Shown one piece after another: positions 7,709 through 51,953 of a stretch of 64,000 bases of DNA. The position numbers were made by a program, and so were the translations under genes. The number at the start of each line of letters is the position of its first letter. Within the stretch, counting starts at the first letter, position 1. Source of the DNA: Acidobacteriota bacterium. Lineage in GTDB: Bacteria > Acidobacteriota > UBA890 > WLXD01. The stretch covers positions 192,001-256,000 of the forward strand of contig CBDBHB010000008.1 in NCBI GenBank assembly GCA_965205505.1. Reading direction: 5' to 3'. Under the pieces are notes generated by a model. The model was not told the DNA's origin and searched no databases. It saw only the letters and a list, made by a program, of their open reading frames with translations.

Positions 7709-7987
7709 CTAGTGTCCTTTAACAGAGGTTCGTTGCATATTGTGGCGCGCGCGACTGAGCTGAATCCAAGGCGACTCGACGACGGCGATGCTGAGCGTAT
7801 CGCAGAGGAGAGCCAACGCCGGAGGTGGCCAGTTCCACTGCCACCCGGAGGGCTGGGTCGATATGGGGGCAATCTCAGCGTTGCGATTCGTCGACGATTG
7901 GCACCGAATCGCCATCCTCATCGCGCCTTGAGCTTGCCCCCATCTCGACCCAGCAATATGCAACGAACCTCTGCTAAAGGACACTAG
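7709..7987. mobile_element. MITE family 1, copy A (279 bp, ~34-bp terminal inverted repeats, CTAG at both ends)
   Basis: CTAGTGTCCTTTAACAGAGGTTCGTTGCATATTG ... CAATATGCAACGAACCTCTGCTAAAGGACACTAG; the right CTAG contains the gcvH stop. Confidence 0.9.
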
Positions 7988-8367
7988 GCTTCTATGTGCT
8001 GTCGGTAATCGGCGCTGCTCATCAACGTATCGGCCAACGACGAATCATCGAGCTTGATCCGTATCATCCAGCCGGCGCCGTGCGGATCCTCGTTGACCAG
8101 CTCCGGGGTGTCGATCAACGCATCATTGACTTCGACGATCTCGCCGGCGACCGGCGCGTACAGATCAGACACCGCTTTGACTGACTCGATCGTGCCGAAA
8201 ACCGCGTCCTGGGCACAGGTCGTACCAAGCTCCGACAGCTCGACGAAGACGACATCGCCCAGCTCGTCCTGGGCATGGTGGGTGATCCCGACAGTGGCGA
8301 TACCATCGTCGACGGAGATCCACTCGTGCTCCGAGCTGTACTTGTACGTATCTGGATAGTCGGCCAT
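7984..8367 (-). CDS. gcvH: Glycine cleavage system H protein
   Basis: HEW, GITHHAQDELGDVVFV, lipoyl motif IESVKAVSDLYAP, DPHGAGW. Confidence 0.97.
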   Translation of the reverse strand: MADYPDTYKYSSEHEWISVDDGIATVGITHHAQDELGDVVFVELSELGTTCAQDAVFGTIESVKAVSDLYAPVAGEIVEVNDALIDTPELVNEDPHGAGWMIRIKLDDSSLADTLMSSADYRQHIEA

Positions 8368-8432
8368 GACCTTATCCTCTCAGCCAGCCGCCGGACGCGC
8401 CGGCAGCGTCGATCCCGCGTTTGCGAGCTGGT

Positions 8433-9530
8433 CTATCGTTGTCTGCGATAAAAGGGTGTCTTCACAACCGTGGCCGGTGTCGCTCGGCCGCGTATTTCTA
8501 CCGCCACCTCAGTGCCGGGGGCGGTGTAGTCGGCCTTGACACAGGCAAGCCCAATGCCTTTTCTCAGCGTCGGACTGAAGGTGCCGGAGGTCACCGTACC
8601 GATCGACCCTCCCCCCTCCTCGAGCACTTCGTAGCCGTGGCGCGGGATGCCTCTGCCCGGTATCTCCAGCCCCACGACGCGCTCCGCGGGCCCCGAGGCT
8701 CGCTGCTCAACCAGCGCCTGCCTGCCGATGAACTCGCCCTTGTGGGGTTTCACAACCCAGCCGATTCCCGCGTCGATCGGGGTGCGCGCGTCGTCCATAT
8801 CACTACCATAGAGCAGCATGCCGGCCTCGAGGCGAAGCGTGTCGCGCGCGCCGAGCCCGGCTGGCGCTATGCCATCCGCGGCCCCGGCATCCATCAGGCC
8901 GTCGGCAAGCGCCTCGGCGTGCTGCGGCGCTAGGTAGACCTCGAATCCGTCCTCACCGGTATAGCCGGTGCGCGAGATGATCGCGGGCGCCCCGCGATAC
9001 TCCGCAACTACGAAGCGATAGTACCGAATGGATGCCAAGTCCGCGTCGACGACTCGGGCCAGGATAGCCTCGCTCCGCGGTCCCTGGAGCGCCAACTGGG
9101 CCCAATCCGAACTCTCGTCGTCGACCACCACGTCGCCCTCAAGGTGGGCGCATATCCAATCGTAGTCCTTGTCCTTGGTGCCAGCATTGACGACGAGAAA
9201 GTAGTCGTCATCGGCGACCCGGTGGACTAGCAGATCGTCCACGATCCCGCCCGACTCACGCGTCATGGCGGTGTACTGGGCCTGGCCGATCTCCAAACTG
9301 GCGGCGTCGTTGGTGATCAGACGTTGTACGTTGGCGAGCGCTGCGCTTCCACGCAGTCGAATCTCGCCCATATGGCTGACGTCAAACAGCCCGGCTCGCT
9401 CGCGCACGGCGGTGTGCTCGTCGACCAGACCGCTGAATTGTACGGGCATATGCCAGCCGGCAAAGTCGACCATTCGGCCCCCCCGCCGTACGTGCCAAGC
9501 GTGCAGCGGTGTCGCTCGCGGCTCCGACAA
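8433..9530 (-). CDS. gcvT: Glycine cleavage aminomethyltransferase T
   Basis: FAGWHMPVQF, GLFDVSHMGE, SRTGYTGEDGFE, GLGARDTLRLEAG. Confidence 0.97.
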   Translation of the reverse strand: MSEPRATPLHAWHVRRGGRMVDFAGWHMPVQFSGLVDEHTAVRERAGLFDVSHMGEIRLRGSAALANVQRLITNDAASLEIGQAQYTAMTRESGGIVDDLLVHRVADDDYFLVVNAGTKDKDYDWICAHLEGDVVVDDESSDWAQLALQGPRSEAILARVVDADLASIRYYRFVVAEYRGAPAIISRTGYTGEDGFEVYLAPQHAEALADGLMDAGAADGIAPAGLGARDTLRLEAGMLLYGSDMDDARTPIDAGIGWVVKPHKGEFIGRQALVEQRASGPAERVVGLEIPGRGIPRHGYEVLEEGGGSIGTVTSGTFSPTLRKGIGLACVKADYTAPGTEVAVEIRGRATPATVVKTPFYRRQR

Positions 9531-9681
9531 TAGACGTTCCTTGCTACTCGGAAGGAGGGCTTCGAGCGCTACCAGGCACTAGCGCAGCTTTTGAAGCTAC
9601 CATAGCAGGCAGCCTACGGTCTTCTGCCCGCTGCCAACGCTGGCGACTGGACTGCAGGACTCACACCGACACAGGAACCGC

Positions 9682-49345: not shown

Positions 49346-51022
49346 TCAGACTCGAGACACGTCGCTCGACGTGGTCGCCACCCACTGGCCACGCTCGCGC
49401 TGCTGTTTGTGCTCGTAGGCAGCCCCGATGAAGGCCGAGAACAGTGGATGGGGCTGCAGCGGACGCGACTTGAATTCTGGATGAAACTGGCAGGCGAGAA
49501 ACCAGGGGTGCTCGGCCAACTCGATGATCTCGACGAACTTGCCGTCTTCGGAGCGCCCTGTAACACGCAGGCCGGCAGCGGCTAACGGCTCATCGAACTG
49601 GGCGTTGAACTCGTACCGATGGCGGTGACGCTCCGACACCTCGCCGCAACCGTAAGCCTCATGCGCCAGACTTCCTGGCTCCAGCAAGCATGTGTAGGCC
49701 CCCAACCGCATCGTTCCGCCCAGATCGTCTACCCCGAGCAGATCGCGCAGCTTGTAGATCACCTTGTCTTTACCGCGACCATCGTGGAAGTCGAACTCCG
49801 AGCTATCGGCGGCGTCCCCAAGCCGTGCCACGCTTTCGGCGAACTCGATGACCGCTGACTGGAAACCGAGACAGATGCCGAAGTACGGCACCGCCGCCTC
49901 GCGGGCGAATCGGATCGCATGCAGCATGCCGCGCACTCCGCGCACTCCGAAGCCGCCGGGAACGAGAACGCCGTCCGCCTCAGCGAGTACCTCGGCCGGC
50001 TCCTCGCCCGCCTCGAAGCGCTCCGCCTCGACCCAATCAATGTCCACGCCCAGCCCGTGCGCTACCCCACCATGGACGAGGGCCTCGCTCAGGCTCTTGT
50101 ACGACTCTTCGAACTCGACGTACTTGCCCGCGAACGCGATACGGACACGATCGCTGGGTGACTTGAAGGTCCGCACCAACCGTTCCCAGTTGTCGAGCCC
50201 CGAGTCGCTCGTCTCCAAGCCCAATTGCTCGCAGATGATAGCGTCGAGCCCCTCCTCACGGAATACGAGTGGCACCTCGTAGATCGAGTCCACGTCCACT
50301 GCGGTGATCACCGCGTCCTGCTCGACGTTGGTGAACAGAGAGATCTTGCGCTTGATCTCTTCCGGAAGGAAGCGGTCGGTACGGCACATCAGCACGTCAG
50401 GCTGGATACCGATCGAGCGTAGGTCCCTGACGCTGTGCTGGGTCGGCTTCGTCTTGAGCTCCTTGGCAGTGGCGATATAGGGAACCAACGTCAGATGAAT
50501 GAAGATGCCGTTCTTGCGACCCACTTCCTGGCGCAGCTGCCGGATCGACTCCATGAACGGCAAGCTTTCGATGTCGCCTGCGGTGCCGCCGATTTCGACG
50601 ATGACCACGTCGGCCGTGTCACCGAGATCGGTGATACGCGTCTTGATCTCGTCGGTGATGTGAGGGATCACCTGCACCGTGTTGCCGAGGTAGTCACCGC
50701 GACGCTCTTTCTGAATCACGGTTTCGTAGATCTGACCGCTGGTGAAGTTGTTCGCCCGACTCATCCTGGCACTGGTGAAGCGCTCGTAGTGACCGAGATC
50801 CAGATCGGTCTCGGCCCCGTCGTCGGTAACGAAGACCTCGCCGTGCTGAAACGGGCTCATGGTGCCGGGATCGACGTTGATGTACGGGTCGAGCTTCAGA
50901 AGGTTGACGCTGTAGCCATGCGACTCCATGAGACGCCCGATCGACGCCGAGGCCAACCCCTTGCCCAGCGACGAGACCACACCACCGGTAATAAAGATGT
51001 ACTTGGTCATGCCTTCGCTCAT
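49346..51022 (-). CDS. pyrG: CTP synthase
   Basis: [45 protein letters not shown]. Confidence 0.98.
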
Positions 51023-51053
51023 GCGCCCACCCCGTACGACTCGCTTGGCCCGC

Positions 51054-51836
51054 TCAGTCTCGTTCCAGGAAGCGCCGCACGCGCGCCAGATCTTCGGGCG
51101 TATCCACCCCAGGAACTGCCTCTGTCACCGGGAATGTCTGGATGAACTTGCCTGCCTCCAGAATCCGCAGCTGCTCCAGCCCCTCTGCCTGCTCCAGCCG
51201 CGACCGGGGGATTCTAGCCCACGTGGACAACGCCTGACGCGTGTACAGGTAAACGCCTACGTGAATCCAGCACGGGACCTCCGACTTCGAAACAGGCTCG
51301 AACGCTATTCGCCGCTCTCCGGCGAGGTTCGAGGCCGCCAGCCAGGCCTTCCTCGGGAACGGCAGTGGCGCACGGCTGAAGTACAAGGCCCGTCCCTCGC
51401 GGTCGACCACCACCTTGACCACATTCGGGTCCCAGCGGTCCCGCGCGTCGACGAGCGGGGCACGCAGGGTACCGTACTGATAGTCGCCAGCAGCGAAGCC
51501 CGCGAGCGCCTCCGACAGCTCGACGGGGTCGATAAGCGGCTCGTCACCCTGCACGTTGAGCACCACCGAACACTCGAGCTTCTCGGCGACATGAGCCACG
51601 CGGTCGGTGCCCGAGGCAAGCGATTCCGGCGTCATCATCGCCTCCACACCTACGGCACGTGCCGCGTCGGCGATACGCTCGTCGTCGGTGGCGACGATCA
51701 CGCGCTCGACCCCGGCCACCGCCGTAACTCGCTCCGCCACGTGTTGGATCAGCGGTCGCCCGGCGAGCAGCGCCAGAGGCTTGCCCGCGAAGCGGCTCGA
51801 GTTGAATCGCGCCGGGATTACGGCGACGCAGTCCAC
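51054..51836 (-). CDS. kdsB: CMP-Kdo synthetase
   Basis: [51 protein letters not shown]. Confidence 0.95.
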
Positions 51837-51844
51837 AGCCTCTC

Positions 51845-51953
51845 CTAGTGTCCTGTAACAGAGGTTCGTTGCATATTGTGGCGCGCGCGACTGAGTCGAA
51901 TCCAAGGAGGCACGACGACGGCGATGCTGAGCGTATCGCAGCCGTGGTGAAGG
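51845..51953. repeat. Truncated family 1 MITE (left ~97 bp of copy A) followed by a family 2-like fragment
   Basis: CTAGTGTCCTGTAACAGAGGTTCGTTGCATATTGTGGCGCGCGCGACTGAG...GGCGATGCTGAGCGTATCGCAG then CCGTGGTGAAGG. Confidence 0.85.

Follow-up and report, generated by a model that had tools for sequence, protein, structure and literature searches.

A 64,000-nt stretch from an Acidobacteriota bacterium (assembly GCA_965205505.1, contig CBDBHB010000008.1, positions 192,001 to 256,000; this whole stretch is the window referred to below) carries repeated copies of a ~55-nt module that lies within miniature transposable elements with inverted repeats (MITEs) and whose fold, centred on opposed GA-rich strands, has been retained behind many different terminal inverted repeats (TIRs). 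A covariance model (R1), built from an alignment of seven window copies (A1), returned eight full-length module matches in the window, with E values from 2e-14 to 7e-12. These copies and their carrier elements are as follows, the bit scores being those of R1.

7709..7987: two-hairpin MITE with A1-type ends (CTAGTGTCCT...), 279 bp; TIRs of 34 nt, inverted repeat I7, 97% complementary
7766..7823 (+): module copy, purine-rich strand on the plus strand; 73.3 bits
7874..7931 (-): module copy, with GCGAT/ATCGC as outer and GGCGATT/AATCGTC as inner stem; 71.0 bits
38212..38399: one-hairpin MITE, 188 bp; inverted repeat I5, 34 nt, 100% complementary
38285..38342 (-): module copy, outer stem GGCGC/GCGCC; 73.5 bits
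40631..40908: two-hairpin MITE with A2-type ends (CTAGTGGCCTGTAA...), 278 bp; inverted repeat I9
40687..40742 (+): module copy, outer stem GCGAC/GGAGC weakened to 3/5 paired; 62.5 bits
40795..40852 (-): module copy; 75.9 bits
44954..45503: composite of an A2-type MITE and a B-type MITE, the latter inserted into a module's apical loop in the former; inverted repeats I1, I3, I10 and I12
45011..45034 (+) and 45313..45339: 5' and 3' halves of the module split by the nested insertion, from reading of the sequence
45035..45312: nested B-type two-hairpin MITE (ends CTAGCAGGCCGTG...); inverted repeat I12, 32 nt, 94% complementary
45091..45147 (+): module copy in the nested B-type element; 64.8 bits
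45199..45257 (-): module copy in the nested B-type element, outer stem GCCGC/GCGGC; 72.6 bits
45394..45449 (-): second module of the outer A2-type element; 62.9 bits
51844..51941 (+): broken A1-type MITE consisting of TIR, lower stem and half a module, 94% identical to 7709-7805 (direct repeat D3)

These elements are short and lack a transposase gene, and the TIRs in the window are 32-34 nt long and 94-100% complementary. The right-hand CTA of the MITE at 7709..7987 is also the stop codon of an open reading frame (ORF) on the minus strand, 7984-8367, and the right-hand CTAG of the nested MITE at 45035..45312 has decayed to CTGG. The initial annotation of this DNA, made by reading the sequence, had listed seven copies, all of which are present to within 1-3 nt; additional copies were found, and the partial one that it had noticed at 51903 spans 51903-51941, with the break at 51941 falling inside the module.

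The module begins with a basal helix of 3 bp and an outer helix of 5 bp that covaries freely, followed by a GA-N-GA/GA-N'-GA motif, a conserved inner helix of 7 bp (GGCGATG/CATCGTC, with one G·U) and a free loop of 5-8 nt at the tip. When sequences from many genomes were fitted to R1 (alignment A3: 95 sequences, 91 distinct, 60 sources), standard pairs occupied 89.5% of cells as compared with 77.8 ± 0.5% after shuffling, and two-sided change was seen in 14 of the 16 pairs as compared with 6.0 ± 1.1 in the shuffled alignments and 3-8 when the 3' partner was slid; neither observed value was reached in any of 500 shuffles. A smaller alignment (A2) gives the same picture of covariation. An alignment fitted to a model leans towards that model, and we note that the results for helix haplotypes, for the two modules of one element and for the middle pair of the GAnGA motif are independent of such fitting.

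The outer helix occurs in the window's genome as at least ten distinct, fully complementary 5-bp haplotypes, namely GGCCU/AGGCC, GCGGC/GCCGC, AGGGU/GCCCU, GCGAU/AUCGC, GCCGC/GCGGC, GGCGC/GCGCC, GCUCC/GGAGC, AGAGC/GCUCU, GGCUC/GAGCC and GGCCC/GGGCC. Within a single element the helices of the two modules mostly differ (for instance AGGGU/GCCCU together with GCGGC/GCCGC in 20 elements, and GCGAU/AUCGC together with GGCUC/GGGCC in 5), which indicates that pairing is kept within each hairpin and not between the two halves of the element. The middle letters of the two GAnGA strands likewise pair with each other: among 200 distinct copies from this genome the pair is CG in 114 and GC in 70, with 12 non-standard or gapped, and among the 91 distinct sequences of A3 it is CG in 64, GC in 15, AU in 1, UA in 1 and unpaired in 9. 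Of the four flanking oppositions, the first (G·A) and the second (A·G) each hold in 86 of those 91 sequences, the third (G·A) in 89 and the fourth (A·G) in 57; at the fourth position, 26 of the remaining sequences have a C-G pair that lengthens the inner helix. We read the motif as two tandem G·A/A·G steps set around one covarying Watson-Crick pair; from what is generally known of RNA and DNA structure the steps would be sheared pairs. The apical loop is free, with 79 distinct loops among the 200 distinct copies.

The consensus and stem covariation proposed in the initial annotation are thus borne out by R1, A2, A3 and the haplotypes, as are its retained GAnGA/GAnGA strands and, by the loop counts, its free apical loop. 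Its view that the structure is under constraint and kept behind more than one kind of terminal repeat agrees with covariation well beyond the shuffled and slid controls, and its suggestion of tandem G-A pairs fits more tightly than was proposed, in that the two n positions form a covarying Watson-Crick pair.

The wider genome (assembly of 5.98 Mb, 64% G+C, nine contigs) yielded 388 matches at E<1 to an nhmmer profile of the window copies, 319 of them full length, and nearly all of its module copies lie inside CTAG-flanked MITEs of 170-290 bp. Neighbouring modules form inward-facing pairs (plus, then minus) in 122 of 133 cases, 118 of these 122 with a spacing of 52-58 nt, and a TAG stands 53-54 nt upstream of the module start in 252 of the 319 copies; 32 of the 319 have no TAG anywhere between -70 and -40. 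At least six TIR types share one layout, and the termini were counted by half-element as follows.

B-type terminus CTAGCAGGCCGTGG: 106 half-elements
A2-type terminus CTAGTGGCCTGTAA: 73 half-elements
C-type terminus CTAGTGCTCCTGAT: 55 half-elements
Variant terminus with ATAGAAGTGGCC: 15 half-elements
B2-type terminus CTAGCAGGGTGCTG: 12 half-elements
A1-type terminus CTAGTGTCCTG: 8 half-elements
Remaining termini: 18 half-elements

Matches to the B-type TIR number 253 in this genome. The shared plan runs from a TIR of ~34 nt through one half of a ~20-bp lower stem of free sequence, the module and the other half of the lower stem to a CCnnnnGG mini-hairpin, then an optional second hairpin with the module in reverse complement, and finally the other TIR; the inward-facing module pair is a consequence of this two-hairpin layout. 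With both ends paired, 125 elements of 160-289 bp could be delimited, 102 of them two-hairpin elements of 270-289 bp and 23 one-hairpin elements of 160-199 bp. Lower stems have a mean duplex energy of -33.3 kcal/mol with their own partner versus -19.1 kcal/mol with partners of other types, and a duplex of -20 kcal/mol or lower is formed by 302 of 319 real pairs versus 130 of 319 controls. The two lower stems of an element differ, each finding its complement in its own partner half, so that the element as a whole is more than a plain palindrome; the module, for its part, does not stand alone but forms the tip of an imperfect hairpin of ~105 nt. Because the carriers have in common a scaffold, a length, the distance from module to terminus, the mini-hairpin and a TA-in-CTAG target, we read them as one MITE superfamily with diversified ends. 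The initial annotation had recognized two MITE families with unrelated ends, which is true within the window and too few for the genome, and it had named cargo as one possibility for the module; independent cargo of two unrelated MITEs is a view that the single scaffold of all carriers does not support.

Where do these ends come from? Six DDE_3 matches were found in the window's genome, and two kinds of insertion sequence (IS) of ~1.15-1.19 kb could be delimited, with transposases that reach 273 and 275 bits against NF033545, a model of the IS630 family with a cut-off of 100. The first 17 TIR nucleotides of the MITE at 38212..38399 are identical to the right end of the first IS kind, and an additional MITE type, from a public record, has its first 14 nt in common with the second IS kind. 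A related genome (G007) has 42 matches to this IS630-family transposase and IS copies that carry A1-like ends at both termini, with 1-2 mismatches in 15 nt. No module lies inside the delimited IS630-family insertion sequences with matching ends. Comparison with four genomes of the same genus (G001-G004, of which G004 is the closest) shows the MITEs at 38212-38399 and 40631-40908 and the composite at 44954 to be missing from the orthologous loci of all four, and the empty site for the 40631 element is a single CTAG in G004 and G001, as compared with CTAG-element-CTAG in the window's genome. The broken copy at 51844-51941 is the only window insertion shared with G004 (a continuous match at 92% identity); G001-G003 have none. 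The A-type elements thus carry IS630-family ends and are mobile. The title of Tenzen and Ohtsubo (1991), as cited in PMC2170065, places the IS630 target at TA within CTAG. Variant flanks occur on the left as TTAG, ATAG or GTAG with CTAG on the right, and on the right as CTAA, CTAC or CTAT, and would be explained more readily by duplication of the 2-bp TA than by a duplication of 4 bp.

For the B-type ends no transposase-bearing partner was found in the window's genome, among 30 IS630 loci of its relatives or among the listed matches of genomes G003 and G007, and so we file the B-type family only as TA/CTAG-targeting. Long units with B-type ends in the window's genome contain an L-PSP/RidA gene or ordinary genes only, and no transposase. 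One such locus outside the window (L201, contig C8 of the window's genome, 961283-962652) has two inverted B-type TIRs 1,369 bp apart that enclose a single gene, the product of which matches Endoribonuclease L-PSP/RidA in three stretches (PF01042, E 1e-52); it has neither transposase nor module and may be a passenger-carrying derivative. Nothing in this genome supported an origin of the ends from IS5 or IS1182: PF13586, PF13751 and PF05598 have no match in it, and the single PF01609 element has unrelated TIRs of 18 nt.

Beyond this genome the module was found by R1, at E <= 0.001, in 23 of 61 genomes counting the window's own: 8 of 10 in the same family, 11 of 15 in a sister family belonging to that order and, in the rest of the phylum, 3 of 35. 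Scanning public genomes with a loose pattern gave at least 80 loci, and R1 made 31 matches (E <= 0.001) on 24 of those listed. Among the matches listed, the record titles are mostly those of Acidobacteriota or Thermoanaerobaculia metagenome-assembled genomes (MAGs), one Acidobacteriota-labelled record (L061) holding near-identical B-type elements. The others include a 7.5-Mb chromosome labelled "delta proteobacterium", MAGs labelled Bradymonadales, Polyangia and Sandaracinaceae, and one MAG labelled Chlamydiota; the genomes behind five of these loci, taken in that order, contain 14, 25, 12, 3 and 8 module matches. One of the matched loci (L107) was treated as chance, as it falls in apparently ordinary coding sequence. 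Elements in the records labelled as other phyla have other TIRs and lower stems and are often of the one-hairpin form, again bounded by TA/CTAG; the core sequence is kept across the differently labelled phyla, while the TIRs and lower stems cannot be aligned. Going by unchecked MAG labels and binning, the fold would seem to have been kept across many end-types and across records labelled as at least two phyla, Myxococcota included.

The module is not symmetrical between its two strands. With the inner-helix G·U set aside, which is nearly fixed (155 of 200 copies), G·U fills 162 cells versus 31 for A·C, and the other non-standard cells are mostly purine-purine. On its purine-rich strand the module is 62% purine, and this strand gives the better fold for 160 of 200 modules and for 268 of 319 long hairpins. 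The excess of G·U, together with the better folding of the purine strand, indicates that the fold is kept on one strand, which argues for a single-stranded form. Reading either strand of any two-hairpin element brings up one purine-rich hairpin, located in the 5' half of that strand.

The placement of the elements relative to genes bears on what that single-stranded form might be. Genes were called with a crude GC3-based ORF filter, which weakens the stop-codon figures: on these calls the terminal TAG is the stop codon of a predicted gene in 53 of the 125 delimited elements (42%), three of them at both ends, and one element of the 125 lies inside a predicted gene. The stop codon is regenerated on insertion because the element begins with G after TA. 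The initial annotation had spoken of placement in operon spacers, which is better expressed as placement at CTAG sites, with this abutment to TAG stops. CTAG is rare in this genome (5,853 sites versus 19,712 expected from base composition), the MITE ends supply 259 of its CTAG sites, and TAG makes up 1,551 of its 4,057 stop codons by the same crude calls.

We tentatively propose, at somewhat less than an even chance, that the hairpin acts as RNA made by read-through past the abutted TAG stop. Transcription reading out of an upstream gene with an abutting TAG would produce a single-stranded RNA of the element, which could then form a stable hairpin recognisable by a protein; the hairpin might protect or define the 3' end of the upstream mRNA, or might be released by cleavage of the 34-bp TIR duplex. 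With the module present in both orientations, the transcript of either strand would hold exactly one purine-rich hairpin, in its 5' half, and if such insertions were harmless or useful the core would be retained while the ends and lower stems drift. Our preference for a role as RNA rests on the motif, which belongs to a class commonly met in RNA, on the tolerance of G·U, and on the read-through placement, the double orientation and the precedent of other MITEs. A more elaborate version, which we offer as speculation and regard as unlikely, is that the purine-rich hairpin is a protein-recognised RNA motif spread across phyla by IS630-type MITEs as an orientation-independent post-stop cassette, released as a small RNA or defining mRNA 3' ends; if this were true, IS630-type MITEs would be vehicles for a mobile post-transcriptional element, not plain junk.

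For expression, four sequencing runs were compared on window positions 37400-41400, two of them metatranscriptomes from a single study. Metatranscriptome contigs cover 40635-40904, within the MITE, and 40348-40659, its left flank; these data are unstranded and DNA carry-over is possible, so that we do not take them as evidence of transcription, processing or strand. The flank is an unannotated stretch upstream of the MITE at 40631, matched by the contigs with 0 mismatches, and the genes at 38740-40347 are uncovered in the two metatranscriptome runs. Subject to the same lack of strand and possible carry-over, the stretch 40348-40659 may be a small transcript or leader.

Several observations, apart from the crude gene calls, weigh against the proposed role as RNA. 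The contig of the left flank enters the element by 29 nt, under the 31-nt bridging threshold, and contigs break at repeat borders. Among one-hairpin elements abutting a stop codon, 6 have the purine strand in sense and 7 in antisense orientation (small numbers), and two-hairpin elements have no clear polarity either, with 6 versus 5 in family B and 11 versus 4 in family C. In the commonest module type (GAGAG/GGAAC, 48 copies) purine-purine oppositions stand where the outer helix would be, and another two abundant types pair at only 3 of 5 positions there. Computed minimum-energy folds of full-length RNA are very stable (-169.6 kcal/mol for the element at 40631..40908, z = -11.2, and -162.1 kcal/mol, z about -11) and correspond to a palindrome of the whole element, not to two local hairpins, although the comparative data favour the local hairpins. 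Finally, rare variants were counted in alignments of 74 elements from three families, a variant being rare when at most two copies have it. Their density is 0.0090 in the module, its loop excluded, 0.0117 in the TIRs, 0.0105 in the lower stems, 0.0245 in the apical loops and 0.0136 in the linker; the module has fewer than loops plus linker (0.0202, 34 in 1,681 cells; Fisher p = 2e-4), a sign of constraint, whereas as compared with TIRs plus lower stems rare variants are equally scarce (p = 0.20). The module is as constrained as the ends, not more, so selection on the element's propagation fits as well as a role as RNA in the host.

This brings us to the main rival, a role in transposition at the level of DNA, which we consider possible, if on the unlikely side. 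The hairpins would extrude, or fold in transient single strands, and in doing so would either draw the two TIRs of a ~280-bp element together for synapsis or bind an architectural host protein with that effect, and loss of the fold would stop the spread of the element. A module constrained like the TIRs, which matter only for transposition, is what such a role predicts. Conservation behind many TIR types and labelled phyla would have transposition chemistry as its obvious shared factor, and the fixed geometry of the elements (the 53-54 nt from TAG to module and the 270-289 bp of most delimited elements) and the absence of an orientation bias relative to genes point the same way. Against this, there are autonomous IS630-family elements with the same ends that are entirely without the module. 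A cruciform, moreover, needs both strands, yet the G·U excess and the purine-purine oppositions favour one; the other strand is left with pyrimidine mismatches, and selection against mismatches would be expected if extrusion were the purpose.

The strand-specific fold with its conserved G·A oppositions might alternatively be a signal in single-stranded DNA, with the purine hairpin exposed on the lagging-strand template or on transferred strands and read by a host primase-, nuclease- or recombinase-like protein. G·A oppositions are also stable in DNA, and the two orientations in one element guarantee a purine hairpin on the exposed strand. We nevertheless think this improbable: tolerated G·U(T) wobbles, one of them nearly fixed, are more typical of RNA, IS630-type transposition is a double-strand cut-and-paste process, and no associated single-strand enzyme turned up, although no search aimed at one was made.

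It could also be argued that the module has no function, and that shared descent with upkeep of palindromes by template switching or gene conversion has left covariation as a by-product. Copies within a family are indeed very similar (rare variants at ~1% per site), so that many of the cells counted above are not independent, and the three abundant module types with broken outer helices have still been amplified. Repair by template switching, however, would turn the G·A oppositions into Watson-Crick pairs, and three of the four are kept in 86-89 of the 91 sequences from 60 sources; at least ten outer helices in one genome, differing within an element, need repeated compensated change; and the core is kept across labelled phyla in which TIRs and lower stems have become unalignable. 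A lack of function therefore seems to us a poor prospect. An operator-like double-stranded site for a dimeric protein, a protein-binding site having been among the suggestions of the initial annotation, is highly improbable: the inner helix GGCGATG...CATCGTC is a conserved near-palindrome, but two-fold symmetry predicts G opposite C where four mirrored positions instead have a conserved G/A or A/G, and the outer helix varies freely in sequence while keeping its complementarity.

Some further features of the window concern the movement of these elements. The composite at 44954..45503 is multi-copy, with six full-length copies in the genome at 96-100% identity, which indicates that it has spread as one unit. 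B-type modules often have a CTAG of their own at the tip, within the apical loop (29 of 200 distinct copies), and such loops would be targets for further insertion. Mini-elements of 33-37 bp at 28832-28864 and 53804-53840 consist of a B-type left TIR fused to ~8 nt of the right end (CTAGCAGGCCGTGGTGGAAG...CCTGCTAG) and look like internal-deletion derivatives or remnants of excision and repair. A solo TIR lies at 48510-48542, and the sequence that follows the broken MITE at the 51941 junction, ...CCGTGGTGAAGGT..., looks like the beginning of a B-type TIR. Directly after the right end of the composite MITE is a 1.4-kb IS110-family element (45504-46904; Transposase_20, E 3e-17) with 32 BLAST matches in the genome, 29 of them full or nearly full length at 98-100% identity. 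In 28 of these 29 copies the bases just to its left are ...GGCCACT, with which the A-type TIR finishes, and in the other they are GGTCACT; its right flank begins with TAG in 25 of 29; it seems, from these junctions, to insert site-specifically into the terminal CTAG of MITE ends or look-alikes. Together with the composite MITE it is missing from the orthologous locus of G001-G004. Elsewhere in the window, two families of direct repeats with a period of 267 nt at 21293-21825 (D1, 142 nt, 75% identity; D4, 100 nt, 79%) are probably a repeated domain in a coding region.

Bacterial MITEs are usually seen as a pair of ends with arbitrary filler between them, and here it is the filler that is best conserved: a specific, non-canonical fold is kept while the ends change, a persistence that points to a factor reading the hairpin. 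The module is thus a compact and testable candidate for a new structured nucleic-acid motif, and the matching IS630 transposases make a system for asking whether internal structure aids the movement or the tolerance of MITEs. The initial annotation could assign the module to no named family, and Rfam gave no match in the whole window: its best sub-threshold scores on two elements are 18-18.5 bits against gathering scores of 50-93, with a model of an archaeal C/D-box sRNA at the top (18 bits; gathering score 50). Our search of the literature found no description of the shared core, of the GA-N-GA/GA-N'-GA motif with its covarying centre or of the two-hairpin layout readable in either orientation; the abstract of a large MITE survey (PMC11602168) does not describe the element, which the survey's supplementary catalogue might list.

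With which known motifs and repeats, then, should the module be compared? It resembles a kink-turn in having adjacent G·A/A·G oppositions by Watson-Crick helices, conserved while the helices covary. A kink-turn has a 3-nt bulge followed by tandem G·A/A·G beside a canonical helix, and was rejected here since the motif is almost symmetrical, its internal strands of 6 and 5 nt (the extra nucleotide on the 5' side) aligning without such a bulge. BOX elements of Streptococcus pneumoniae are made of modular, conserved sub-units in variable number that form stem-loops, and our elements are like them in having modular one- and two-hairpin forms and unlike them in their modules, host and mobilising enzyme, which are unrelated. 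Like repetitive extragenic palindromic (REP) sequences, the module is a short, abundant palindromic repeat, often in head-to-head pairs, and it contains CGTC. The CGTC REPs, according to PMC3733652, have an unpaired terminal tag, stems of 8-9 bp starting with A-T, loops of 4-5 nt and a CCA tail. By the definition in that paper, a REP with a CGTC or GTAG tag has its four-letter tag unpaired at the terminus, a simple stem of 8-13 bp and no TIRs; this reading was rejected because in the module CGTC is part of the inner helix, where it is paired, and because TIRs bound the units.

Among MITEs, Correia (NEMIS) elements in transcripts are cut by RNase III at their TIRs, and ERIC elements at 3' ends change transcript levels (both from PMC10969869). 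Our elements are likewise MITEs, and their position after stop codons would, by analogy, allow effects through co-transcribed RNA; compared by description only, they differ in having two internal hairpins with a non-canonical motif as opposed to one long TIR-based stem. The closest relatives in kind are the bacterial MITEs mobilised by IS630/Tc1-mariner elements, such as RUP of Streptococcus pneumoniae and Nezha of cyanobacteria (in part after PMC3733652). The A-type elements are of this known kind: they share its TA-in-CTAG target, have A-type ends matching IS630, and are short, multi-copy and mostly intergenic. What sets our elements apart from other IS630-mobilised MITEs is the ~55-nt folded G·A core, which is common to at least six end-types in this one genome and to more elsewhere.

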